Made by a program: the position numbers and the translations under genes. Below are positions 3,384 to 62,230 of a stretch of DNA of 64,000 nucleotides, piece by piece. The stretch spans positions 2,290 to 66,289 of the forward strand of contig DASSBR010000045.1 in NCBI GenBank assembly GCA_035698525.1. Reading direction: 5' to 3'. Source of the stretch: Gammaproteobacteria bacterium (GTDB taxonomy: Bacteria > Pseudomonadota > Gammaproteobacteria > Natronospirales > DASSBR01). The stretch's first letter is position 1; each line of letters starts with the position of its first letter. The notes beneath the pieces were generated by a model, which had not been told where the DNA came from, did no database searches, and saw only the letters and a program-made list of their open reading frames with translations.

Positions 3384-4427
3384 TCAGGACCGATTCGGTG
3401 CCCGCGCGCCAGCAGTCGCACCGCCTTTGCGGCGGCTCTTGCCGGCTAGGACGGTGGCGAGGCTTGCGGCGACGTCGGCGATGCCGTCCGCGGCGTGCAC
3501 TCGTGGCTTCCAGTCGAGCAGTTCCTGCGCCTTGCGGATGTCGGGGCGGCGGCGGGTGGGATCGTCGGTGGGCAGCGGCTCGAACACGATGGACGATGCG
3601 CTCCGCAGTTGCTTGAGGACCATCTTCGCGATGTCGAGGACGCTGTATTCCTCGGGATTGCCGAGGTTTAACGGGTGCGGGTAGTCGATCTGCATCAGCC
3701 GCGCGATGCCTTCGACGAGATCGGAGACGTGCTGTAGGCTGCGCGTCTGGGTGCCGTCGCCGTAGACGGTCAGCGGCTCGTCGGTCAGCGCCTGGCGGAC
3801 GAAGTTGGTGACGACGCGGCCGTCGTACGGGTCCATCCGCGCGCCGTAGGTGTTGAAGATGCGCACAACGCGCACCGGCAGGCCATGCTCGCGGTGGTAG
3901 CTCATCGTCATCGCTTCCGAATAGCGCTTGCCTTCGTCGTAGACGCTGCGCGGCCCGGTCGGATTGACGTTGCCCCAGTAACGCTCCGTCTGCGGGTGCT
4001 CCAGCGCGTCGCCGTACACTTCGCTGGTGCTGGCCAGCAGGAACTGCGCGCCATTGCGCCGCGTCAGTTCCAGCAAATGATGGGTGCCGATGCTGTTGGC
4101 GAGCAGCGTTTCCAGCGGCCAGCGCAGGTATTTGGGCGGCGAGGCGGGCGAGGCGAAGTGCATCACCCAGTCGATCTTCGCCTTGATTGCCAGCGGCTTC
4201 GTAATGTCGTGCTCGATGAATCGGAAACGCGGCTCGCGGTTCAGGTGGGCGATGTTGCCCGGGCGGCCGGTGATGAAGTTGTCGACGCCGATGACGCGGA
4301 AACCGTCATCGAGCAGGCGGTCGACCAGGTGGCTGCCGATGAACCCGGCAGCCCCGGCGACTAGTACCGTGTGCGGGCGCGCACCGGCGGAGGGGCCATC
4401 CTTGGCCCTCGATGAAATCACTCTCAT
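3384..4427 (-). CDS. UDP-glucuronate decarboxylase (UDP-xylose synthase-like extended SDR)
   Basis: Rossmann motif VLVAGAAGFIGSHL. YDEGKRYSEAMTMSYHREHGLPVRVVRIFNTYGARM closely resembles the UXS family signature. Start moved to the ATG at 4427 (MRVISS...), which has AAGGAAG 6 nt upstream; the track ORF start at 4475 is probably too long. Confidence 0.8.
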   Translation of the reverse strand: MRVISSRAKDGPSAGARPHTVLVAGAAGFIGSHLVDRLLDDGFRVIGVDNFITGRPGNIAHLNREPRFRFIEHDITKPLAIKAKIDWVMHFASPASPPKYLRWPLETLLANSIGTHHLLELTRRNGAQFLLASTSEVYGDALEHPQTERYWGNVNPTGPRSVYDEGKRYSEAMTMSYHREHGLPVRVVRIFNTYGARMDPYDGRVVTNFVRQALTDEPLTVYGDGTQTRSLQHVSDLVEGIARLMQIDYPHPLNLGNPEEYSVLDIAKMVLKQLRSASSIVFEPLPTDDPTRRRPDIRKAQELLDWKPRVHAADGIADVAASLATVLAGKSRRKGGATAGARAPNRS

Positions 4428-4647
4428 CGGCATCTTCCTTGCGCTGGCAGACTGCCGCGCGGTTCGACACTGCAAATCCCTTGCAACGTGGGTTCAATAT
4501 AGCATCTACCGGTCTCTGAACCTGCTGGGGTGGGTGCCTATAGAAAATGCCCGCAACCGCAGGCGCTTGCATCCGCTGGTGAATTAATTAACACTGATGT
4601 TGCGGAATCAGGGATCGAATTCCAAACAAAATGCAGGGAACGCGTAA

Positions 4648-5772
4648 ATGAAAAACATCCTTATAGCGGGTGGCGCCGGCTTCATCGGCTCACACCTCGC
4701 ATCGGAGTTGCTGTGTCACGGTTATCGCGTTCGCGTACTCGATAACCTGACCCCCCAGGTTCACGGGACCCAGATCGATGGGGGGCAGCGGCGCCCAACC
4801 TACCTTGACGATGACGTAGAACTCCGCGTCGGCGACGTGCGCGACCTCGCCACGGTGCGCGACGCGCTCGACGGCATCGACGGCGTGTTCCACCTGGCCG
4901 CGGCGGTCGGCGTCGGCCAGAGCATGTACCAGCTCGAGCACTACACGTCGACTAATAACGTCGGCACGGCGGTGTTGCTCGAAGCGCTGGCGCGCCAGCC
5001 GGTCAAGAAGCTCGTGGTCGCCTCGAGCATGAGCCTCTATGGCGAGGGCCTCTATCACGACGAGACCGGAGCCACCGTCATCGCGCGGCGCGATCGCGAA
5101 CAACTGGCGCAGCGCGATTGGGAACCGCACGGGCCCAACGGGGAATCGCTGACGCCGGCGCCGACACCGGAGTCCAAGTCGCCGGACCTGAGTTCGGTTT
5201 ACGCGCTGTCGAAGTTCGACCAGGAACGGCTCTGCCTGATGGTCGGCGAAGCCTATGGCATACCCGCGACGGCGTTGCGCTTCTTCAATGTTTACGGCCC
5301 CTACCAAGCGTTGTCGAACCCGTATACCGGCGTGCTGGCGATCTTCGCCTCGCGCTGTCTGAACGACAGCCCGCCGCTGATCTTCGAAGACGGCGAGCAG
5401 CGCCGGGACTTCGTCAGCGTCCGTGATATCGCGCGCGCATCGAGGCTCGCGTATGAGAGCGATGCCGCGGACGGCCAGGTCTTCAATATCGGCAGCGGGC
5501 AGGCATTCACAATTTGCGAGATCGCGCGGAAGATCGCCGCCGCGACCGGCAAGCCCGGTATCGAGCCGGAAATCACCGGCCGCTACCGCGTCGGTGATAT
5601 CCGTCATTGCTTCGCCGACATCACCCGCGCGCGCGAGACGTTCGGCTACGAACCCGAAGTCACGCTCGACGACGGCCTCGCCGAAATGGCGGCGTGGCTG
5701 GCGACCGCGCAGGCGGTAGACCGCGTCGCCGAAGCGAGCGCCGAACTGGTGTCGCGGGGGCTGACGCTATGA
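4648..5772 (+). CDS. NAD-dependent sugar-nucleotide epimerase/dehydratase (extended SDR)
   Basis: GGAGFIGSHL glycine-rich motif, YxxxK catalytic motif (YALSKFDQE), FFNVYGP. Divergent from the UXS-like gene. Confidence 0.8.
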   Translation: MKNILIAGGAGFIGSHLASELLCHGYRVRVLDNLTPQVHGTQIDGGQRRPTYLDDDVELRVGDVRDLATVRDALDGIDGVFHLAAAVGVGQSMYQLEHYTSTNNVGTAVLLEALARQPVKKLVVASSMSLYGEGLYHDETGATVIARRDREQLAQRDWEPHGPNGESLTPAPTPESKSPDLSSVYALSKFDQERLCLMVGEAYGIPATALRFFNVYGPYQALSNPYTGVLAIFASRCLNDSPPLIFEDGEQRRDFVSVRDIARASRLAYESDAADGQVFNIGSGQAFTICEIARKIAAATGKPGIEPEITGRYRVGDIRHCFADITRARETFGYEPEVTLDDGLAEMAAWLATAQAVDRVAEASAELVSRGLTL

Positions 5773-7769
5773 ACCGCCCCGACATCGGCGTGCTGGAGTG
5801 GTTCTGGCTGAACGATCACGAGCGCGTCGAAGCCGCGATCGCTGAAATTCGCAGGCTCAACATCCGCCACCTCCGCACCGGCCTGTCGTGGGCGGACTAC
5901 CTCACCGACGACGGCCCCGCGTGGTTCGACTGGCTGCTCCCGAAGCTGGCGAAGGAAGCCGAGTTGCTGCCCTGCTTCGTCTATACCCCGCCGTCGCTCG
6001 GCGAGGCGCCGGCCACCAATTCGCCGCCGCGCAATGCCAAGGACTACGCCGATTTTATGGATCTATGCATCGATCGCTACGGCAAGCACTTCGAAGCAGT
6101 CGAGTTGTGGAACGAGCCCAACAACCTGCGCCAGTGGGATTATGAACTCGACCCGCACTGGACCAAGTTTGCGGCGACGATCGGCGGCGCGGCCTATTGG
6201 GCGCGCAAGCGCGGCAAGCGCACAGTACTCGGCGGCATGTCGCCGATCGATCCGAACTGGCTCAACACGATGCGCGACCGCGGCGTGCTGGACCACATCG
6301 ACATCGTCGGCGTACACGGCTTTCCGGACAGCTACGACGTAAAACATCGGCCGTGGACCAGCCACTTGCGCCGCGTGCGCGAACAGCTCGCACATTACGG
6401 CCTTGGGGCGAAAGTCTGGGTCACGGAGGCCGGGTACCCAACCTGGCGCCACGATGACTTCCGCCAGCTCGAGGCGTTCGCGGACTTGCTTGCGCTGCCG
6501 GTCGAACGCGTTTACTGGTACGGACTGTCGGACCTGCCGGCGGAGCGCCCGTCCGACGCGGGCTTTCACACCGACCCGCGCGATTATCACTTCGGCATCA
6601 AGACGGCGAAGGGCCAGGACAAGCTGCTCGCCCGCTGCTGGGCCGAGCGCGGCGTGGAAGGCGTGCGGGCGATGGCGCGGTGGCCGGAAATCACCCTCGA
6701 ATCGAGCCAGGCGCCGGTGCTGATCACCGGCGGCGCCGGCTTCGTCGGCACGAACCTGGCGGCGCGGCTGGTCGGCGAGGGCCGGGCCGTGCGCATCCTG
6801 GACAACCTGTCGCGGCCGGGCGTGGAACGGAACCTCGAATGGTTGCGGCAGCGCTGCGGCAAGTCGGTCGAGTTCATCGCCGGCGACACCCGCAACACCC
6901 GCGTTGTCGACCGCGCCGTCGACGGCTGCACGCAGATATTCCACCTAGCCGCGCAGGTCGCCGTGACGACGAGCCTCGAAGACCCGCGCGCCGATTTCGA
7001 CGTCAACCTCGGCGGCACGCTGAACGTGCTCGAAGCGGCGCGTCGCCAGCCGCACCCGCCGGGCATCGTGTTTACTTCGACCAACAAGGTTTATGGCGAG
7101 CTGGGCGATGTAGCGCTCGACGAAGAACAGACCCGCTACTGCCCGCATGCGGCGCATATCGCGCGCGCCGGCATCGACGAAAGCCGCCCGCTCGACTTCC
7201 ATAGCCCGTACGGCTGCTCGAAAGGCGGCGCGGACCAGTACATCCTCGACTACGCGCGCTGCTACGGCCTGCCGACCGTCGTGTTTCGCATGAGTTGCAT
7301 TTATGGCCCGCACCAGTTCGGCACTGAGGATCAAGGCTGGGTCGCGCATTTTCTGATTCGCGCGCGCGACGGCCAGCCGATCACGATCTACGGCGACGGC
7401 AAACAGGTGCGCGACGTGTTGTTCGTCGAAGACCTCGTATCGGCGTTCCTGCTCGCGGAAAGCAACATTGCGAACCTCGCCGGACAGGCGTTCAACATCG
7501 GCGGCGGACCGAAAAACGCGATCAGCCTGCTGGAATTGATCGACGTGATCGAAGAGCTGCAGGGCGTAAAGCCGCGGCTCGACTTCGCCGGCTGGCGCAC
7601 CGGCGATCAGCCATGGTACGTCTCCGACACCACCCGCTTCGGCGCCGCCACCGGCTGGCGGCCGCGGGTCCGCATGCGCGACGGCATCGGCCGCCTGCAC
7701 GACTGGCTCGAAGGCGCCCGTTCCGGCGCGCGGACGCGGCAACGCCTGCGACAGGCCGTCGCCCCGTGA
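5769..7769 (+). CDS. Fusion protein: N-terminal clan GH-A (TIM-barrel) glycoside-hydrolase-like domain plus C-terminal SDR epimerase (CDP-paratose/tyvelose 2-epimerase-like)
   Basis: Start placed at the ATG at 5769 (MNRPDIGVLEWF...), which forms an ATGA overlap with the upstream stop; the Arg-rich extension from 5607 overlaps the previous gene. The N-terminal half carries the GH-A acid/base motif ELWNEPNN and the nucleophile motif VWVTEAGYP. The C-terminal half has VLITGGAGFVGTNL and SPYGCSKGGADQYILDY...MSCIYGPHQFGTEDQGWVAHF. No signal peptide. Confidence 0.7.
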   Translation: MNRPDIGVLEWFWLNDHERVEAAIAEIRRLNIRHLRTGLSWADYLTDDGPAWFDWLLPKLAKEAELLPCFVYTPPSLGEAPATNSPPRNAKDYADFMDLCIDRYGKHFEAVELWNEPNNLRQWDYELDPHWTKFAATIGGAAYWARKRGKRTVLGGMSPIDPNWLNTMRDRGVLDHIDIVGVHGFPDSYDVKHRPWTSHLRRVREQLAHYGLGAKVWVTEAGYPTWRHDDFRQLEAFADLLALPVERVYWYGLSDLPAERPSDAGFHTDPRDYHFGIKTAKGQDKLLARCWAERGVEGVRAMARWPEITLESSQAPVLITGGAGFVGTNLAARLVGEGRAVRILDNLSRPGVERNLEWLRQRCGKSVEFIAGDTRNTRVVDRAVDGCTQIFHLAAQVAVTTSLEDPRADFDVNLGGTLNVLEAARRQPHPPGIVFTSTNKVYGELGDVALDEEQTRYCPHAAHIARAGIDESRPLDFHSPYGCSKGGADQYILDYARCYGLPTVVFRMSCIYGPHQFGTEDQGWVAHFLIRARDGQPITIYGDGKQVRDVLFVEDLVSAFLLAESNIANLAGQAFNIGGGPKNAISLLELIDVIEELQGVKPRLDFAGWRTGDQPWYVSDTTRFGAATGWRPRVRMRDGIGRLHDWLEGARSGARTRQRLRQAVAP

Positions 7770-8893
7770 CGGCGGAGCGCGCCAGCATCCAGCGCGTGCT
7801 GATGACCGCCGACACCGTCGGCGGCATCTGGCAATACGCGCTGGAACTCGCACGTGGGTTGAGCGAGCATGGCGTGAACGTGGCGCTGGCGACGCTGGGC
7901 GAGCAGCCGAACGCTGAACAGCGGCACGCCGCGGAAGCGATTTCCGGTCTCACACTGCACACCAGCGACTGGCCGCTTGAATGGACGAACCCGCCGTCGG
8001 ACGAACTCGATCACGCCGGCGAATGGCTGCTCGGTATCACCGCCGACTTCAATCCCGACGTTGTGCATCTCAACAACTATTTCTATGGCGCGCTGCGCTG
8101 GCCCGCGCCGGTGATGGTCGTCGCGCATTCCTGCGTTTATTCATGGTTCGAGGCGGTGCACGGCGCGTTGCCGCCGGAAGAGAGCTGGGGGCGGTATCGA
8201 AAAGGCGTGGATCGCGGCATCAGCGGCGCGGACATGCTGGTCGCGCCGAGCGCGGCGATGCTCGCGTCGATGGAAAGATTCTACGGTCCGCTTCACAACA
8301 CCCGCGTCATTGCCAACGGCCGGCGCAGTGCAGAGTTCCGGCCGCGCAACAAGCGCGGGCGCATTCTCGCCGCCGGCCGGCTGTGGGACGAAGGCAAGAA
8401 TATCCTCGCCCTCGCCCGCGTCGCGCCGCGTCTCACCTGGCCAGTACGCCTGGTCGGCGACGTGCATCATCCGAGCGGCCGCCGCAGCCAGTTCACCAAT
8501 GTCGAGTGGATCGGCTCCGCCGGCAGCCGCCGCATTGCACGCGAGTACGCGTCGGCAGGCATCTATGCCCTGCCCGCGCGCTACGAGCCGTTCGGCCTGA
8601 GCATCCTGGAAGCGGCGCTCGCCGGCTGCCCACTGGTGCTCGGCGACATCCCGAGCCTGCGCGAAGTCTGGGGCCGCGCCGCGTTGTACGTGAAACCGGA
8701 CGATGAACGGGGCCTGGCGAACACGCTGAACAACCTGATCGACAGCCCGATGGAACGCCAGTCATGGGGCGTGCGGGCGCGGCATCGCGCACGCCGCTAC
8801 AGCGCGGCGCGCATGACCAAGGGCTACCTGCAAGCATACGGCGATCTGCTTGACGCGCGCGAAACCAACCGGCGCATGGAGGTTTTTGGTTGA
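7766..8893 (+). CDS. Glycosyltransferase family 4 (GT-B)
   Basis: In-frame GTG at 7766 forms a GTGA overlap with the upstream stop (an alternative ATG lies about 36 nt downstream). TADTVGGIWQY N-terminus; E-x7-E-type C-terminal motif YEPFGLSILEAALAGCPLV. Confidence 0.75.
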   Translation: MTAERASIQRVLMTADTVGGIWQYALELARGLSEHGVNVALATLGEQPNAEQRHAAEAISGLTLHTSDWPLEWTNPPSDELDHAGEWLLGITADFNPDVVHLNNYFYGALRWPAPVMVVAHSCVYSWFEAVHGALPPEESWGRYRKGVDRGISGADMLVAPSAAMLASMERFYGPLHNTRVIANGRRSAEFRPRNKRGRILAAGRLWDEGKNILALARVAPRLTWPVRLVGDVHHPSGRRSQFTNVEWIGSAGSRRIAREYASAGIYALPARYEPFGLSILEAALAGCPLVLGDIPSLREVWGRAALYVKPDDERGLANTLNNLIDSPMERQSWGVRARHRARRYSAARMTKGYLQAYGDLLDARETNRRMEVFG

Positions 8894-10020
8894 TGCGTAT
8901 CGTCATGTTCTATCACTCGCTGGTGTCTGACTGGAACCATGGCAACGCGCATTTTCTCCGCGGCATCGCGACCGAACTCATAGAGCGCGGCCATAACGTG
9001 TGCGTTTACGAACCGGCGAACGGCTGGAGCCTCAGGCACCTGCGGCAGCAACGGGGCAACGCCGCGATTGCCGCCTTTCACCAGCATTACCCGCGCCTCA
9101 AGACGCATTTTTATGAGCCTGATCGTGTTGACCTTGAACGCGCGCTGGACGGTGCCGATCTCGTGCTGGTGCACGAATGGAACGATCCGGCGCTGATCGG
9201 CCGCATCGGCCAGCACCGCGCGCGGCATCGCTACCGGCTGCTGTTTCACGACACGCACCATCGCTCGGTGTCCGACGCCGCCGGCATCGCACGCTGCAAG
9301 CTCGATGACTACGACGGCGTGCTCGCCTTCGGCGAAGCCATCCGCCAGCGCTACCTCGACGCCGGTTGGGCGCGGCACGTCTGGACCTGGCACGAAGCCG
9401 CCGACACGCGCGTATTCAAGCCGCTGCCCGACGAACCACGTGAACGCGATGTGGTCTGGATCGGCAACTGGGGCGACGGCGAGCGCGACCGGGAGCTGAA
9501 CGAATTTCTGCTCCAACCGGCCGCGGCGCTGAAACTCAGCGCGACCATCCACGGCGTGCGTTATCCGCGCCCGGTGTTGCGCAAGCTCAATGCCGCCGGC
9601 TTCGACTATCGCGGCTGGCTCCCCAACTTTGACGCGCCGCGGGCCTACGCGCGCCACCGCGTGACGGTGCATGTACCGCGCCGCCCTTACGCGCGCGCCC
9701 TCCCCGGCATCCCGACGATCCGCATGTTCGAAGCGCTGGCGTGCGGCATCCCGCTGGTCTCCGCGCCGTGGCAGGACTGCGAGCATTTATTCACGCCCGG
9801 CGAGGATTACCTGGTCGCGAAGAATGGCGCTGAAATGCGCAACCATTTGCGCACGATCCTCAACGAGCCGGAACGCGCGGCAGCGCTCGCCGCCCACGGC
9901 CGCCGCACGATTCTCGCCCGCCACACCTGCGCGCACAGGGCCGATGAACTGCTGGCGCCTGTCACACCGCAGACTGAAGAAATTCCGGACGCCCTCTCCC
10001 TAAGGAAGAGGGTTGGGTGA
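8893..10020 (+). CDS. CgeB-family (Glyco_trans_1_2 / DUF3880-like) glycosyltransferase, paralog 1
   Basis: MRIVMFYHSLVSDWNHGNAHFLRGIATELIERGH N-terminus. C-terminal RMFEALACGIPLVS...GEDYLVA...ILARHTCAHRADELL is typical of the CgeB-like family. The ATG overlaps the upstream TGA. The last ~10 codons are encoded by a degenerate REP copy. Confidence 0.7.
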   Translation: MRIVMFYHSLVSDWNHGNAHFLRGIATELIERGHNVCVYEPANGWSLRHLRQQRGNAAIAAFHQHYPRLKTHFYEPDRVDLERALDGADLVLVHEWNDPALIGRIGQHRARHRYRLLFHDTHHRSVSDAAGIARCKLDDYDGVLAFGEAIRQRYLDAGWARHVWTWHEAADTRVFKPLPDEPRERDVVWIGNWGDGERDRELNEFLLQPAAALKLSATIHGVRYPRPVLRKLNAAGFDYRGWLPNFDAPRAYARHRVTVHVPRRPYARALPGIPTIRMFEALACGIPLVSAPWQDCEHLFTPGEDYLVAKNGAEMRNHLRTILNEPERAAALAAHGRRTILARHTCAHRADELLAPVTPQTEEIPDALSLRKRVG

Positions 10021-10024
10021 GGGG
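9992..10024. repeat. Degenerate REP-like element copy
   Basis: ccctctccctaaggaagagggttgggtgagggg resembles the CCCCTCTCCC-N4-GGGAGAGGGG-N3-GGGTGAGGG family seen at 11090, 11173 and 62196. It spans the stop codon of the CgeB-like paralog 1 gene. Confidence 0.45.
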
Positions 10025-10033
10025 TGTCATGCC

Positions 10034-11212
10034 ATGAAAATCGCCTTCTTTGGTTCGAGTATCGTCTCCGCCTGGTGGAACGGCGCGGCAACCTATTACC
10101 GCGGCCTCCTCCGCGAACTGGCGGCGCTCGGCCACGACATTACCTTTTACGAACCGGCTGTTTTCGAGCGCCATCAGCACCGCGACATCGATGACCCGGA
10201 GTGGGCACGGATCGTCATTTACGCCCCGGACGATGTGCGCCGCATGCTGCACGACGCATCCGACGCCGACGTGATCGTCAAGGCCAGCGGCGTCGGCGCG
10301 AACGACGCCATGCTTGAGCGCGCCGTACTCACGCTCAAGCGACCCGACAACCAGGTCATCTTCTGGGATGTCGATGCGCCGGCCACGCTGGAGCGGCTGG
10401 AGCACGACCGGGACGATCCCTTCCGCGTGCTGGTGCCGGAGTACGACCTGGTGCTGACCTACGGCGGCGGCCCACCGGTCGTCGCTGCCTATGAGGGCTT
10501 CGGCGCGCAACGCTGCGTGCCGATTTATAACGCGCTCGACCGAACCACCCATTTCCCGGTTGAACCGGACGAACGCTTCATGGCCGATCTCGTCTTTATC
10601 GGCAACCGGCTGCCGGACCGCGAGGCGCGCGTCGACGAGTTCTTCTTCAACGCAGCCGAATGCTCGCCGCAACGACAATTCCTGCTCGGCGGCAACGGCT
10701 GGCAGGAACGCGCCGCGCCGGTCAATGTCCGCCTGCTCGGCCACGTCTATACGCGCGACCACAATGCGATTAACTCAAGCGCACTCGCCGTGCTCAACAT
10801 CAGCCGCGCGAGCATGGCGCGCGTCGGCTACTCGCCCGCAACGCGCGTGTTCGAGGCGGCCGGCGCGGGGGCATGTTTGATTACAGATGCGTGGACGGGA
10901 ATTGAAGAATTTTTTGAGCCGGGTGAGGAGATTCTGGTGGCGGAGTGCGGTGCCGAAGTTGCCGATCTGTTAAACGATCTGACTGCCGAAGATGCGCGGC
11001 GGATCGGCGACGCAGCGCTCGCGCGCGTGCGGGCGGATCATACGTATGCCAGCCGGGCCGCTGAAGTTGACGCGCTCCTCCGTTCCAGTCCCCTCTCCCT
11101 CCGGGAGAGGGCCAGGGTGAGGGTTCCCAGTAGCGACAACGCGTTGTATTACGACCGCCATCTCGAAACCGACCCTCACCCCAACCCCTCTCCCGAAGGG
11201 AGAGGGGCTTAA
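10034..11212 (+). CDS. CgeB-family glycosyltransferase, paralog 2 (3' end reads through two REP copies)
   Basis: MKIAFFGSSIVSAWWNGAATYYRGLLRELAALGH parallels paralogs 1 and 3. The C-terminal part has VFEAAGAGACLITD...GEEILVA...HTYASRAAEV. The tail SSPLSLRERARVRV...DPHPNPSPEGRGA is REP-encoded. Confidence 0.7.
   Translation: MKIAFFGSSIVSAWWNGAATYYRGLLRELAALGHDITFYEPAVFERHQHRDIDDPEWARIVIYAPDDVRRMLHDASDADVIVKASGVGANDAMLERAVLTLKRPDNQVIFWDVDAPATLERLEHDRDDPFRVLVPEYDLVLTYGGGPPVVAAYEGFGAQRCVPIYNALDRTTHFPVEPDERFMADLVFIGNRLPDREARVDEFFFNAAECSPQRQFLLGGNGWQERAAPVNVRLLGHVYTRDHNAINSSALAVLNISRASMARVGYSPATRVFEAAGAGACLITDAWTGIEEFFEPGEEILVAECGAEVADLLNDLTAEDARRIGDAALARVRADHTYASRAAEVDALLRSSPLSLRERARVRVPSSDNALYYDRHLETDPHPNPSPEGRGA
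11090..11123 (+). repeat. REP-like hairpin element (forward copy)
   Basis: cccctctccctccgggagagggccagggtgaggg: a 10-bp stem (cccctctccc/gggagaggg) plus a GGGTGAGGG tail. Near-identical to 62196-62230. Confidence 0.7.
11173..11207 (-). repeat. REP-like hairpin element (inverted copy)
   Basis: ccctcaccccaacccctctcccgaagggagagggg is the reverse-complement orientation of the same family. Together with 11090-11123 it forms a larger inverted repeat around a ~49-nt spacer. Confidence 0.7.
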
Positions 11213-11232
11213 GAGGGAGCGTCGGACAGAAA

Positions 11233-12321
11233 ATGAACATCGTCATTTTAGGCCTCTCCATCACCTCTTCCTGGGGCAACGGTCACGCCACCACCTACCG
11301 CGGCCTCGTCCGCGAACTGACGCGTCAGGGCCACCAAGTCCTGTTCCTCGAACGCGACATGCCGTGGTACGCGGCCGAGCGCGATCTGCCCGATCCGCCG
11401 TTCGGCGAGACGCGTCTGTACGATTCCGTCCCCACCCTCAAGCGCAGCCACGCCGATGCGATTCGTGCCGCCGACGCCGTCATCGTCGGTTCCTACGTGC
11501 CGGAAGGCGTCACCGTCGCCGAATGGGTGCTCGACAAGGCGCGCGGCTGCGTTGCGTTTTACGACATCGACACACCGGTCACACTCGCGAAGCTCGACGC
11601 CGGCGACTACGAATACCTGGAGCCGGAGCTGTTGCCGCGCTTCGATCTGTATCTTTCGTTCACCGGCGGGCCGGTGCTCAAACGGCTGGAAAACGACTAC
11701 GGCGCGCGCCGTGCGCGAGCGCTGTATTGCTCGGTTGATCCGGAAATTCATTATCCCACCCAGGCATCCGCCCGCTGGGATCTCGGCTATCTCGGCACCT
11801 TCAGCGTCGACCGCCAGGCGCGCGTCGACCGCCTGCTGCTTGAACCGGCGCGGCGCGCGGCGCAACGACGCTTCGCGGTCGCAGGCGCGCAGTTCCCGGC
11901 GGACACCGATTGGCCGGACAACGTCGAGCATATCCAGCACATCGCGCCAGCCGCGCACGGCGGCTTTTACAATGCGCAGCGCTTTACCCTGAACGTCACC
12001 CGCGATGCGATGATCGCCGCCGGGTTCGCGCCGAGCGTGCGCCTGTTCGAAGCAGCCGCCTGCGCCGTGCCGGTCATCTCCGACCGCTGGAACGGACTCG
12101 ACACGTTCTTTGAGCCTGAACGGGACATTCTGATCGCGGAAGATACGGACACTGTACTCGACTATCTGGACGAGTTGCCGGAACGGGAGCGCAAGGCGAT
12201 CGGCCTGCGCGCACGCGAGCGGGTGCTTGCCGCCCATACGGCCGCCCATCGCGCGCACGAACTGGTCGAATATCTGCGGTCAAGCCTGCCGCGTCGCGTT
12301 GCCAGCGCTGCAGCGCAATGA
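11233..12321 (+). CDS. CgeB-family glycosyltransferase, paralog 3
   Basis: MNIVILGLSITSSWGNGHATTYRGLVRELTRQGH; LFEAAACAVPVISD...ERDILIA...VLAAHTAAHRAHELV. Confidence 0.7.
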   Translation: MNIVILGLSITSSWGNGHATTYRGLVRELTRQGHQVLFLERDMPWYAAERDLPDPPFGETRLYDSVPTLKRSHADAIRAADAVIVGSYVPEGVTVAEWVLDKARGCVAFYDIDTPVTLAKLDAGDYEYLEPELLPRFDLYLSFTGGPVLKRLENDYGARRARALYCSVDPEIHYPTQASARWDLGYLGTFSVDRQARVDRLLLEPARRAAQRRFAVAGAQFPADTDWPDNVEHIQHIAPAAHGGFYNAQRFTLNVTRDAMIAAGFAPSVRLFEAAACAVPVISDRWNGLDTFFEPERDILIAEDTDTVLDYLDELPERERKAIGLRARERVLAAHTAAHRAHELVEYLRSSLPRRVASAAAQ

Positions 12322-13061
12322 ACGATCTCGCGACCCTCCAGTCGCCCGGCGCCTCGCCGCCGGGTCCGCTGGGCGACCAGTTGCAGCGCCTCGGCCCCTG
12401 GTTTCACAACCTGCATCTGCCGGGCGGCGTGCAAACGGCGCCCGATCATCCGCTGGGCGATTTTCCAAAGTTCAAATGGAAGGAAATCGCACCGCACCTG
12501 CCAAACGATCTACACGGCTGGCGGGTTCTCGACATCGGCTGCAACGCCGGCTTCTACAGTTTTGAACTTGCGCGCCGTGGTGCCAACGTGGTCGGCATCG
12601 ACGAAGATCTGCACTATCTCCGCCAGGCCCGATGGGTGCGGCGGCGCTTTGGCCTCGGCGAATGCGTCCGCTTCCGCCAGATGAGTGTTTACGAACTGTC
12701 GGGCTGGCAGGAAAGTTTCGACATGGTGCTGTTCCTCGGCGTGTTCTACCACCTGCGTTATCCGCTGCTGGCGCTCGACCGGATCGCGGCGAGAACGCGC
12801 CGCATGCTCGTGTTTCAGAGCCTGCGACTCCCCGGCGAGGCAGTGGCGACGGATGTGAAGGGTAAGGCGTATCTCGAAATTGACGATCTGGCGAAGCCGG
12901 ACTGGCCGCGCATGGCATTCGTGGAACATGACTTCGCCGGCGATGCGAGTAACTGGTGGATTCCGAATCGGGCGGCGATGGAGGCGCTGTTGCGGAGCGC
13001 GGGATTTAATATCGTCGCATCGCCTGCCAAAGGAACTTACGTTTGCGAGCCGAAGCGTTAG
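12318..13061 (+). CDS. Class I SAM-dependent methyltransferase, CmoB/DUF1698-like
   Basis: ATGA overlap with the upstream gene. WFHNLHLPGGVQT...WRVLDIGCNAGFYSFELARRGANVVGID (SAM motif I), FDMVLFLGVFYHLRYPLLAL, WWIPN, all typical of the CmoB-like/DUF1698 family. Confidence 0.7.
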   Translation: MNDLATLQSPGASPPGPLGDQLQRLGPWFHNLHLPGGVQTAPDHPLGDFPKFKWKEIAPHLPNDLHGWRVLDIGCNAGFYSFELARRGANVVGIDEDLHYLRQARWVRRRFGLGECVRFRQMSVYELSGWQESFDMVLFLGVFYHLRYPLLALDRIAARTRRMLVFQSLRLPGEAVATDVKGKAYLEIDDLAKPDWPRMAFVEHDFAGDASNWWIPNRAAMEALLRSAGFNIVASPAKGTYVCEPKR

Positions 13062-13747
13062 GGAACAAGAAGGTTGTCGGGGCGCACGTCCAATTGCTCC
13101 AGCCGCTGCGCCAGCAACTCCGGAAACCGCTTGTACCACGTCGCGTTGAGCGGCGACGGATGCGGCAGCGGATAAAGCCTCACCTGGCGCGACTCGCCGT
13201 CCGCCGACAACGCCACCTTCATCGTCGCCGTGTAACGATCCTCCCGCTGCCAGAAGGCGTCCAACGCCGCTCGCTCCTGCCGCGCTTTGCCGATGCCGAA
13301 CCAGAAAAACGCTTCCCGTCCGAGGACGATGATGTCCGCGCCGCGCCAGTGCTTCAGCAGCACTTCCATCATCAAATCGCAGAAGTTGCGTTTCACGCGC
13401 ATCGGCCAGGCTTTGTTGCCCACCGGCTTGTACGGAACAGTATTGGCCCAGAAGAAATGCCGGCCGACTTCGACCGACGCGGCAAAGTCCGGCATCTCGC
13501 GCCCGTATAGATACCGGTACGCCGCCGCGCGCACCTTTTGCCCGCCGGCACCGATGAACGGCATGCCGTGGCGCACCTCGTCGCCGCCGGGATCGCGTCC
13601 GAAAAAGGCAATGCGCGCGTTGGGGTCGCCGAGGCCGATGATCGGCTCCAGCGGGTCCTTGTTGAATTTCGCGTAGACAGCCTTGTCGATGTTCGCCAGT
13701 TCGCCGCCCTGCCGGCGAAATGCAGCGCGCAGCCTGTCGTCGATCAC
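13058..13747 (-). CDS. Uracil-DNA glycosylase superfamily protein (non-canonical motifs)
   Basis: Motif A-like FFGRDPGGDEVRHGMPFIGAGGQ and motif B-like LYPLPHPSPLN. Start set to the GTG at 13747, which forms a GTGA overlap with the GST stop; the track ORF start at 13879 would overlap the GST gene by 136 nt and has no better support. Confidence 0.6.
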   Translation of the reverse strand: MIDDRLRAAFRRQGGELANIDKAVYAKFNKDPLEPIIGLGDPNARIAFFGRDPGGDEVRHGMPFIGAGGQKVRAAAYRYLYGREMPDFAASVEVGRHFFWANTVPYKPVGNKAWPMRVKRNFCDLMMEVLLKHWRGADIIVLGREAFFWFGIGKARQERAALDAFWQREDRYTATMKVALSADGESRQVRLYPLPHPSPLNATWYKRFPELLAQRLEQLDVRPDNLLVP

Positions 13748-14439
13748 CGCTTCTGATATTGCATCGCGCCGAACATGATTTCCTTTTCCTGCTCGGTCAT
13801 GCCGCCTTCGCGCCTGTGCTCCTGCAGCACTTCGAGCCCGCGCTTCACCGCCGGGCGCTCGCCGACCTTCTCGAACCACGCCTTGACGTGCGGATAATCG
13901 TCCATCGGGAGGCCTTCCTTTTCATGGCCGCGCAGCCACGGCCAGATCGCGATGTCGGCGATCGTGTACTCGTCGCCGGCAAAATACGGCACTTGTGACA
14001 AGCGTTTGTCCATGACGCCGTAAATGCGCTTGCCTTCGTTCGTGTAGCGGTCGATTGCGTACTGGATTTTATCCGGCGCGTAATCGCGGAAATGATGAAT
14101 CTGCCCGATCATCGGCCCGACATGACCGACCTGGAAACACAGCCACGACAACATCTCGACGCGGGCGCGCGGATCGGCGGGTATGAAACGGCCGGTTTTT
14201 TCAGCGAGGTACGTCAGGATCGCACCCGACTCAAAGATGGAGATCGGATTTTTACCCGGTCCGTCCTGATCAACAATGGCCGGAATCTTGTTGTTGGGAC
14301 TGATCTTCAGGAACGCCGGCTTGAACTGGTCGCCTGCGCCGATGTCAACCGGGTGCGCCTCGTAGGCGAGCCGGGTCTCCTCCAGCATGATATGAGCTTT
14401 ATAGCCGTTCGGAGTCGTCCATGAATACAGGTCGATCAA
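13744..14439 (-). CDS. yfcG: Nu-class glutathione S-transferase (YfcG-like disulfide reductase)
   Basis: MIDLYSWTTPNGYKAHIMLEE...FLKISPNNKIPAIVDQDGPG...SIFESGAILTYLAEKTG...ADIAIWPW aligns by eye along its full length with E. coli YfcG. Confidence 0.8.
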   Translation of the reverse strand: MIDLYSWTTPNGYKAHIMLEETRLAYEAHPVDIGAGDQFKPAFLKISPNNKIPAIVDQDGPGKNPISIFESGAILTYLAEKTGRFIPADPRARVEMLSWLCFQVGHVGPMIGQIHHFRDYAPDKIQYAIDRYTNEGKRIYGVMDKRLSQVPYFAGDEYTIADIAIWPWLRGHEKEGLPMDDYPHVKAWFEKVGERPAVKRGLEVLQEHRREGGMTEQEKEIMFGAMQYQKR

Positions 14440-16936: not shown

Positions 16937-16952
16937 TGGCACGATACTTGCT
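16937..16952 (+). promoter_or_regulatory. Sigma-54 (-24/-12) promoter of pilA
   Basis: TGGCAC-gatac-TTGCT matches the TGGCAC-N5-TTGCW consensus exactly, 72 nt upstream of the pilA ATG. Type IVa major pilin genes are classically RpoN/PilR dependent. Confidence 0.7.
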
Positions 16953-17023
16953 TGGTATATGGACCAAGAAGCGGAGGTGAGCCGTTTCTAACTATTTTTT
17001 CACCACGGTTTGGGAGTGGGAGC

Positions 17024-42871: not shown

Positions 42872-42892
42872 CCTTCTCCCGAAGGGAGAAGG
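42872..42892. repeat. Degenerate REP-like hairpin
   Basis: ccttctccc-gaa-gggagaagg preceded by ccctcatcc. A diverged relative of the CCCTCACCC...CCCTCTCCC-N4-GGGAGAGGG family, in the secA upstream intergenic region. Confidence 0.4.
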
Positions 42893-45415: not shown

Positions 45416-45442
45416 GACCCCTCTCCGGCCGGGAGAGGGGTC
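45416..45442. repeat. REP-like hairpin downstream of ftsZ
   Basis: gacccctctcc-ggccg-ggagaggggtc, an 11-bp perfect stem with the same CCCTCTCC/GGAGAGGG core as the other copies. Confidence 0.5.
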
Positions 45443-62195: not shown

Positions 62196-62230
62196 CCCCT
62201 CTCCCTTCGGGAGAGGGGCTGGGGTGAGGG
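62196..62230 (+). repeat. REP-like hairpin element
   Basis: cccctctcccttcgggagaggggctggggtgaggg, the best copy of the family, 19 nt downstream of the maf stop. Confidence 0.7.

Follow-up and report, generated by a model that had tools for sequence, protein, structure and literature searches.

A widespread gene cassette of CgeB-type glycosyltransferases and a TIGR04290 methyltransferase as a candidate for cytoplasmic synthesis of a methylated glycoside

It has been shown that mycobacteria make their 3-O-methylmannose polysaccharide (MMP) in the cytoplasm, using a gene cluster that encodes a GT-B mannosyltransferase, a primer-making endomannosidase and methyltransferases (PMC9883506). Here we analyse a 64,000-nucleotide stretch of gammaproteobacterial DNA (contig DASSBR010000045.1; hereafter the window) that carries on its plus strand, at 4648-13061, a cassette of seven genes (G1 to G7, Table 1), and beside it a divergent gene for a UDP-xylose synthase (UXS, G0). 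The cassette encodes two short-chain dehydrogenases/reductases (SDRs), the second of them fused to a glycosidase-like (GH) domain, a GT4 glycosyltransferase, three CgeB-type paralogues (C1, C2 and C3) and a methyltransferase (MT). Our preferred, if tentative, reading is that the enzymes of the cassette make, in the cytoplasm, a methylated hetero-oligosaccharide or glycoside of defined structure. By our comparison, the MMP cluster (ManT, MmpH, MeT1, MeT3) would be its nearest functional precedent, as both combine GT-B transferase, endo-glycosidase and S-adenosylmethionine (SAM)-dependent methyltransferase functions in a cytoplasmic, export-less arrangement. This likeness is organisational, and the cassette is not a homologous member of the MMP system. 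Only the fold is shared with ManT (7QSG), at 13% identity; ManT ranks sixth among the structural matches of a C3 model, with a template modelling (TM) score of 0.72, and by sequence is the second-ranked match of the GT4 enzyme. The cassette differs from the MMP cluster in having four transferases, a single TIGR04290 methyltransferase, a GH39-like glycosidase and its own nucleoside diphosphate (NDP)-sugar epimerases, and in occurring in at least 13 phyla, in contrast to the mycobacterial MMP. Neither the cassette nor its product nor its CgeB-type enzymes are described in any paper found by full-text literature searches, in agreement with the original prediction, made from the sequence of the window, that this gene combination is uncharacterised. 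Its components all come from known superfamilies and its enzymology is conventional; the cassette itself occurs very widely and is uncharacterised.

Scanning one genome per species for the marker methyltransferase gave at least 589 loci, and in these species-level genomes the gene stands nearly always in the cassette, which implies a conserved and evidently useful metabolite. For gene content, the window proteins and Ramlibacter accessory proteins were compared by tblastn with a set of fetched loci made up of the best 80 of the at least 589 and six from an exact-protein look-up; counts out of 51 refer to those loci, all from other species, whose sequence extends 9 kb or more upstream of the methyltransferase gene. 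C1, C2 and C3 are found in the same order in 41 of the 51 loci, with GT4 also present in 40 and both SDRs as well in 35. Orthologues of the first SDR (SDR1) were found in 40 loci, the GH-like domain, free or fused, in 29, a zinc-dependent alcohol dehydrogenase (ADH) together with a GFO/IDH/MocA dehydrogenase (GFO) in 33, and an inositol-1-phosphate synthase (I1PS) in seven. The commonest order is SDR1-(GH)-SDR2-ADH-GFO-GT4-C1-C2-C3-MT. The window has a reduced form of the cassette, with the order of Ramlibacter tataouinensis (L001; SDR-SDR-ADH-GFO-GT4-3xPF13524-MT) minus ADH and GFO, a form also present in L002, L003, L005, L070 and L086; no homologue of ADH, GFO, NUDIX or I1PS was found anywhere in the 64-kb window. 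Hosts belong to the Pseudomonadota (alpha, beta and gamma), Bacteroidota, Gemmatimonadota, Acidobacteriota, Planctomycetota, Verrucomicrobiota, Cyanobacteriota, Armatimonadota, Desulfobacterota, Myxococcota, Fibrobacterota, Binatota, Actinomycetota and Chloroflexota (Actinomycetota and Chloroflexia carriers L068, L069 and L081), and many of them, judged by name alone, are soil metagenome-assembled genomes (MAGs) or arid-soil isolates. In the Pfam-annotated neighbourhoods the flanks differ in every genome, with I1PS and acyl-CoA synthetase genes in Ramlibacter and phenylacetate catabolism, a chemotaxis operon or acyl-CoA genes elsewhere; in L086 the same seven genes as in the window have a restriction-modification system on one side and genes for a patatin and a penicillin amidase on the other. 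Natural fusions of C3 or CgeB-type proteins to the TIGR04290 methyltransferase, of CgeB to CgeB, and of SDR1, GH-like domain and SDR2 (~1080-1100 aa) appear to tie the parts of the cassette together. These comparisons suggest that the seven genes are a self-contained cassette that is inherited and transferred as a unit and has spread horizontally. GC content in the window ranges from 0.53 to 0.69, and the excess of the cassette (0.64-0.67) over its immediate flanks (0.58-0.61) fits horizontal acquisition. An anti-phage defence island was also considered, on account of the restriction-modification flank of L086 and a weak GT4-conflict match, and was rejected: PADLOC returned only a generic methyltransferase-core match, to G7.

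The methyltransferase belongs to a family that has for years had a curated model and a name, with no substrate or function attached to it; its original TIGRFAMs entry reportedly mentions glycosyltransferases as neighbours. TIGR04290 (meth_Rta_06860, an NCBIfam hypothetical equivalog) has as its founding member Rta_06860 of R. tataouinensis, which lies within the same cassette. By profile match G7 is a member, with 328.5 bits (E 1.7e-98, model positions 3-226 of 226) against a cutoff of 300, and it is 100% identical to an NCBI 'TIGR04290 family methyltransferase' from a Gammaproteobacteria MAG; a curated subfamily does, then, define this enzyme, a point that the original prediction had left to be checked. 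That prediction had placed G7 in the CmoB-like/DUF1698 type. G7 is a class I methyltransferase and the DUF1698 assignment stands (PF08003, 68.5 bits, cutoff 23.8), but a CmoB of the tRNA-modifying type was rejected, as the CmoB models NF011650 and TIGR00452 score 74.5 and 71.5 bits against cutoffs of 209 and 275, with just core residues 51-185 aligning, and the genomic context is one of glycan synthesis rather than tRNA modification. G7 shares with CmoB the Rossmann core and a GV(L/F)YH.R.P motif that includes the equivalent of Tyr200, and lacks the first ~60-85 residues. The carboxy-SAM-binding residues of CmoB we take to be Lys91, Tyr200 and Arg315 (E. coli numbering). The Tyr200 equivalent is invariant in the G7 family, while the Lys91 position appears to be an invariant His and a counterpart of Arg315 is not evident, these last two having been read by eye outside the HMMER alignment. 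Among the matches listed, the methyltransferase homologues formed more than 8000 clusters at 90% identity, which reduce to 182 representatives at 50% identity with E <= 1e-30, and the family therefore appears to be tight. A more distant subfamily has the methyltransferase fused to tetratricopeptide (TPR) repeats; with the natural fusions named above it makes up a set of proteins P0363, P0373, P0126, P0131, P0265 and P0269, and also P0403, P0410 and P0447.

Public annotations give proteins of the G4 to G6 type the name of CgeB, a spore maturation protein of Bacillus subtilis with which the three paralogues share PF13524. Of the two profiles by which the original prediction proposed to check its three CgeB-like paralogues, Glyco_trans_1_2 (PF13524) matches all three at 131-136 bits against a Pfam gathering cutoff of 25, and DUF3880 gave no match to G4, G5 or G6 at E <= 0.01. 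Their N-terminal signature S..W.NG.A...RG is also conserved as had been claimed, being kept in all three paralogues and in ~50-60 orthologues of each. The cassette proteins differ from CgeB in their hosts, which do not sporulate, in forming a fixed set of three paralogues within a biosynthetic cassette, and in giving no DUF3880 match. Mutual identity of C1, C2 and C3 is merely 27-33%, whereas orthologues of each are ~55-65% identical across phyla; C1 orthologues in other phyla are 51-66% identical and always lead the three. Given this low identity between paralogues that nevertheless share motifs, the triplication would be old and every copy individually constrained, and the divergence of paralogues together with the conservation of orthologues fits three distinct and conserved catalytic roles. 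An AlphaFold 2 (AF2) model of G6 has a GT-B fold (mean predicted local distance difference test, pLDDT, of 94), and its top structural matches are sucrose-phosphate synthase, MshA, PglA, ManT, tetrahydrobiopterin glucosyltransferase, BshA and GlgM. Among these best matches, sucrose-phosphate synthase, MshA, ManT, BshA, the tetrahydrobiopterin glucosyltransferase and GlgM use acceptors that are soluble small molecules or cytoplasmic glycans, a point in favour of cytoplasmic synthesis. The nearest solved relatives of the GT4 enzyme G3 by sequence are sucrose-phosphate synthase, ManT, PimA, GlgA and MshA.

That the operon encodes epimerases had been recognised from the outset, and for one of them the assignment can now be made more specific. 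SDR1 has UDP-glucose, UDP-GlcA and UDP-HexNAc 4-epimerases as its nearest solved relatives, to which it aligns in two pieces around a ~45-aa insertion that precedes the YxxxK motif; it is predicted to be a GalE-like NDP-sugar 4-epimerase-type SDR. The C-terminal domain of G2 aligns end-to-end with 9RL0 and 1ORR (315 bits, E 5e-93), in the manner of a CDP-tyvelose 2-epimerase and with the motifs STNKVYG and YGCSK in register, and is probably an NDP-hexose C2 epimerase. A 4,6-dehydratase, suggested by the best NCBIfam match (dTDP-glucose 4,6-dehydratase), was rejected in view of the tyvelose epimerase score and of STNK in place of the TDE of 4,6-dehydratases. 9RL0 is the Thermodesulfatator atlanticus enzyme that interconverts CDP-glucose and CDP-mannose (PMC7851689, PMC13098431). 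G2 differs from CDP-tyvelose 2-epimerase in its fusion to a GH39-like domain and in having no 3,6-dideoxyhexose pathway nearby. The divergent gene G0 matches human UXS1 over residues 21-317 (341 bits, E 5e-101) and is predicted to be a genuine UDP-glucuronate decarboxylase, as the original prediction of a UXS-like gene had it; NCBIfam apparently has no standalone UXS equivalog, and its nearest models are below cutoff for G0 (bifunctional UDP-4-keto-pentose/UDP-xylose synthase model, 89.5 bits, cutoff 294). UXS is an accessory gene and not part of the core, and the pentose-containing product that had been deduced from it is weakly indicated, because UXS adjoins the cassette in just 8 of the 51 loci.

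The closest described relative of the N-terminal domain of G2 is PslG, the GH39 endoglycosidase of the Pseudomonas Psl operon. This domain has no Pfam match, and PF01229 (GH39) is touched by one of 24 orthologues, at E 0.06. A profile built from the 24 orthologues matches PslG at E 5e-8, and an AF2 model of the domain, a TIM barrel with a pLDDT of 89.8, matches PslG in Foldseek at E 5e-17 with a TM score of 0.73-0.75, making PslG the best match by both profile and fold. The catalytic NEP and TE glutamates are kept, with W114-N115-E116 invariant and P117 and T219-E220 nearly invariant. As such, the proposed GH::SDR fusion is real; it is widespread among orthologues, and SDR1::GH::SDR2 triple fusions exist too. 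From its model, the domain is presumably an active, cytoplasmic, retaining glycosidase of clan GH-A; by its sequence matches we regard it as GH39-like, yet do not file it as a GH39 member. It differs from PslG, to which it is ~21% identical, in being cytoplasmic, fused to an SDR and outside any export system.

The proteins of the cassette are predicted to be soluble, as no 19-residue Kyte-Doolittle window of at least 1.6 and no signal-like N-terminus was found in any of them, in line with the original prediction of an operon free of signal peptides. A Pfam search of the window operon found no flippase, polymerase or priming transferase; of the components that mark a Wzx/Wzy-, ATP-binding cassette (ABC)- or synthase-dependent surface polysaccharide locus (priming phosphoglycosyl transferase, flippase or ABC transporter, polymerase or synthase, export component) the operon has none. 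The same families, and outer-membrane export proteins, were absent from seven Pfam-annotated homologous neighbourhoods. We also clustered the flanking open reading frames (ORFs) of 81 loci all-against-all, using crude longest-ORF calls that include many antisense shadow ORFs in GC-rich loci and were used solely for recurrent flanking families; export families were not recurrent among them, and the only recurrent transporter was an ABC exporter, in seven loci. The original claim that the operon lacks an exporter and polymerase can thus be extended to its homologues, which do not always carry such genes. These results bear on the possibility that the cassette is an ordinary exopolysaccharide or O-antigen module with its export genes elsewhere, here in a Wzx-type cluster at 19.6-30.3 kb, which we consider very improbable. 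That cluster, with GT2, GT4, Wzx, pyruvyltransferase and acyltransferase genes, lies 6.6 kb downstream, and PslG itself comes from an exopolysaccharide operon. However, the two are separated by genes for a uracil-DNA glycosylase, a glutathione S-transferase, BrkB, DUF4156 and a pilin, five unrelated genes of which three lie on the opposite strand, and the Wzx-type cluster was not beside the cassette in any other genome examined; a functional link between them was discarded on the ground that the cluster is not conserved with the cassette. Surface-polysaccharide loci are, in addition, typically variable, in contrast to a cassette that is nearly invariant across phyla, and the GH domain, which has no signal peptide, shares a polypeptide with an NAD-dependent cytoplasmic enzyme.

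No family outside the cassette recurs in the flanks of more than 12 of the 81 loci. Two reach this number: a histidine phosphatase, found in several phyla (L009, L015, L016, L024, L029, L034, L038, L039, L045, L047, L056 and L072), and a 623-aa protein with no Pfam match, in which phosphoribosyltransferase-like and kinase-like regions can be made out by eye (L009, L012, L015, L021, L024, L032, L034, L039, L042, L059, L072 and L073). The ABC exporter of the seven loci is MsbA-like, and a sugar-1-phosphate nucleotidyltransferase recurs in five. A HAD-IIIA phosphatase, a UDP-glucose dehydrogenase, a NadM-Nudix-like gene, and a fourth CgeB-type gene accompanied by a free GH-like gene also occur beside the cassette. 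I1PS is divergent and adjacent in L001, L011, L026, L033, L074, L083 and L084, and the accessory dehydrogenases give IolG-like and IolM-like matches of 103.5 bits against a cutoff of 355 and 84.8 bits against a cutoff of 450. The I1PS, the weakly IolG- and IolM-like dehydrogenases and the phosphatases together suggest a phosphorylated cyclitol or polyol as acceptor. Mycothiol, glucosylglycerate and sucrose are made on this principle, with a phosphorylated acceptor and later dephosphorylation. A second architecture has no CgeB-type genes: in L038, where it was confirmed gene by gene, it consists of I1PS, a GH-like gene, a histidine phosphatase, a TIGR04290-like methyltransferase and a second methyltransferase, and a related form in L080 has I1PS, a GH-like gene, a methyltransferase, GT9 and a second methyltransferase, with no phosphatase. 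In L056, I1PS and the histidine phosphatase lie upstream of the methyltransferase.

The same neighbours can be read as signs of a membrane-anchored glycolipid or lipid-linked glycan, assembled by peripheral GT-B enzymes on the cytoplasmic face, on an acceptor of diacylglycerol, phosphatidylinositol, hopanoid or lipid A-core type, and flipped by housekeeping or unlinked transporters; we consider this unlikely. GT-B enzymes of family GT4 such as PimA and PimB', which appear among the matches, need no membrane segment, PF13524 proteins occur in Acinetobacter lipooligosaccharide outer-core loci that are likewise without flippases, an MsbA-like exporter accompanies seven of the cassettes, and I1PS adjacency is compatible with phosphatidylinositol glycosides. 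On the other hand, genes for lipid synthesis or for a CDP-alcohol phosphatidyltransferase are absent from the cassette, whose proteins keep ~55-60% identity between phyla that differ greatly in their envelopes, Actinomycetota and Chloroflexia among them. Soluble phosphatases and an epimerase-fused cytoplasmic glycosidase would also suit soluble intermediates better. Direct cytoplasmic glycosylation and methylation of a protein (coat, pilin, flagellin or S-layer), in the manner of CgeB, would account for three paralogues of the CgeB family PF13524, given the role of CgeB in the Bacillus spore crust, and a type IV pilin gene does lie 4 kb downstream in the window. The formation of cysts by Ramlibacter (PMC3164672) may be counted on the same side. 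We nonetheless judge this explanation improbable, as no candidate substrate protein is conserved beside the cassette, the pilin neighbourhood is not conserved, and the phosphatase, kinase-like and cyclitol-type accessories would be left unexplained. The remaining probability falls to functions outside cytoplasmic glycoside synthesis and the three alternatives considered here.

For cytoplasmic synthesis of a methylated glycoside, we infer the following course. Nucleotide sugars would be tailored by the 4-epimerase-like SDR and the tyvelose-epimerase-like C2 epimerase, with a possible supply of UDP-xylose from the neighbouring UXS in the window genome. The GT4 enzyme would glycosylate a small acceptor and so start the chain, C1, C2 and C3 would in sequence each add one specific residue or linkage, and the TIGR04290 methyltransferase would O-methylate or cap the product; the GH39-like domain may trim or recycle the glycan, for example by making primers. 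In the fuller cassettes the acceptor would probably be a cyclitol derived from inositol, or some other phosphorylated polyol, with later removal of the phosphate, and it would not be specific to one envelope type because the cassette is present in outer-membrane bacteria as well as in Actinomycetota and Chloroflexia. The product would likely be a protective or storage solute of soil bacteria. A more detailed version is doubtful: that the product is a methyl-capped tri- or tetrasaccharide, cyclitol-borne in most lineages, whose genes pass horizontally between bacteria of soils and drylands in at least 13 phyla, that it serves as a desiccation or osmotic protectant or as a carbon reserve, that the CgeB trio is an ordered assembly line, and that the GH39-like domain recycles the product to primers, as in the 'partially conservative replication' of MMP. 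Several observations weigh against cytoplasmic glycoside synthesis. The IolG and IolM matches are far under their curated cutoffs, the adjacency of I1PS is mostly that of one clade and the window has none, the ABC exporter recurs downstream of the cassette in its seven loci, and the cluster near the cassette in the window is a conventional Wzx-type one. CgeB, from which the family takes its name, acts on a protein surface layer, PF13524 proteins are found in the Acinetobacter loci mentioned above, and the structural neighbours of a GT-B enzyme are biased toward enzymes that crystallise readily. The original suggestion of an intracellular methylated glycoconjugate rather than a surface polymer is, as a hypothesis, consistent with all of the evidence. 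If it is right, polymethylated or capped glycans inside the cell would be common among soil bacteria, and not a mycobacterial curiosity, and the cassette would provide first biochemical roles for TIGR04290, for CgeB-type transferases outside sporulation and for the fusion of a GH39-like domain to a tyvelose epimerase. The seven-gene minimal form of the window is small enough to be transplanted to a laboratory host, and the question is therefore directly testable.

Table 1. Coordinates of the cassette and associated features (window positions unless a locus is named)
Feature	Position	Strand	Basis or remarks
G0, UXS, predicted UDP-glucuronate decarboxylase	3384-4475; likely start ATG near 4430	-	PF01370, PF16363, human UXS1 match
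Divergent intergenic region, 172 bp	4476-4647	.	presumed promoters of UXS and operon
G1, SDR1, GalE-like extended SDR with ~45-aa insertion	4648-5772	+	PF01370, 172 bits
G2, whole gene, GH39-like::CDP-tyvelose-2-epimerase-like fusion	5769-7769	+	314-aa N-terminus without Pfam match, then SDR
G2, N-terminal GH39-like domain	5769-6710	+	orthologue profile and AF2 model
G2, C-terminal CDP-tyvelose-2-epimerase-like SDR	6711-7769	+	315 bits to 9RL0, 1ORR
G3, GT4, GT-B fold family	7766 (GTG) or 7802 (ATG) to 8893	+	PF13439, PF13579, PF13692, PF00534
G4, CgeB-type paralogue 1 (C1)	8890-10020	+	PF13524, 135.9 bits
G5, CgeB-type paralogue 2 (C2)	10034-11212	+	PF13524, 130.7 bits
G6, CgeB-type paralogue 3 (C3)	11233-12321	+	PF13524, 133.5 bits
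G7, TIGR04290-family SAM-dependent methyltransferase, DUF1698-type CmoB relative	12318-13061	+	TIGR04290, 328.5 bits
REP-like copies	9990-10025, 11088-11125, 11170-11208, 42872-42892, 45419-45439, 62197-62217		palindromic
Inverted REP-like pair, long hairpin between G5 and G6	11088-11208	.	exact pattern matches at 11091, 11186
Uracil-DNA-glycosylase-superfamily gene	13058-13879	-	overlaps G7 (stop 13059-13061) at 13058-13061
Type IV pilin gene	16952-17518
686-aa ORF	17567-19627		no Pfam match
Wzx-type glycan cluster	19666-30330		GC 53-56%
Burkholderiales accessory genes (NadM-Nudix-like; UDP-glucose 6-dehydrogenase in L082)	L001 10810-11814; L082 8638-9999, 10842-11888; L083 10795-11823
Extended cassette (Gemmatimonadales)	L009 2492-12150
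Second architecture without CgeB-type genes	L038 7139-12604		confirmed gene by gene
Form related to the second architecture	L080 4245-9692

The compact operon and its gene content are as originally described, all eight ORFs being present at the predicted positions by ORF listing and translation and their domains confirmed. The claim that its junctions are almost all translationally coupled is correct in part. G1/G2 and G6/G7 overlap by ATGA and G3/G4 by TGATG, and G2/G3 overlaps by GTGA if G3 starts at its GTG, but otherwise has a 32-nt gap to the ATG; in contrast, G4/G5 and G5/G6 have gaps of 13 and 20 nt, both within insertions that resemble repetitive extragenic palindromic (REP) elements. 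The window contains six copies of these elements, with the consensus CCCCTCTCCCTyCGGGAGAGGGGyTGGGGTGAGGG, where 0.02 would be expected, and three of the six are inserted at operon junctions. G4 ends within the first of them, on the plus strand at the G4/G5 junction, and takes its stop codon from it. The inverted pair between G5 and G6 has a folding energy of -77.6 kcal/mol (z = -8.3); in tblastn extents the homology of G5 to its orthologues stops near 11080, and the last ~45 codons of G5 are a non-homologous read-through of the pair (…SPLSLRERARVRV…PSPEGRGA). The exact REP pattern is absent from L002 and L003, the loci of the closest relatives. A promoter scan found no sigma-70 consensus in the divergent intergenic region, and Rfam gave sub-threshold noise only, one such match being the REP hairpin as 'miRNA'; a riboswitch or leader RNA was discarded, as all Rfam matches were sub-threshold. 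At its 3' end the operon converges with a uracil-DNA-glycosylase-superfamily gene, and the two overlap by 4 nt, so there is no space for a terminator.

Some copies of the cassette elsewhere, and the surroundings of the one in the window, show further features. The extended cassette of L009 continues after the methyltransferase with the 623-aa protein, a HAD-IIIA phosphatase, a free GH-like gene, a sugar-1-phosphate nucleotidyltransferase, a fourth CgeB-type gene, a histidine phosphatase, an MsbA-like ABC exporter and an aminotransferase. The 623-aa protein of L009 and a 673-aa protein of L082, both downstream of the methyltransferase and with no Pfam matches, are not mutually homologous. Burkholderiales copies have a NadM-Nudix-like gene (cytidylyltransferase-like plus NUDIX; 220 bits, cutoff 397) after the methyltransferase, and in L082 a UDP-glucose 6-dehydrogenase gene stands between C3 and the methyltransferase. 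In the window, the type IV pilin gene is followed by the 686-aa ORF, which could be a pilin-modification or pilus-associated gene, and then by the Wzx-type cluster. The genes of this cluster, which is lower in GC, encode GT2, GT4, a methyltransferase, a Wzx-like flippase, a PhyH dioxygenase, GT4, GT2 and Acyl_transf_3, together with an unusual 790-aa fusion of a radical-SAM domain to a polysaccharide pyruvyltransferase.

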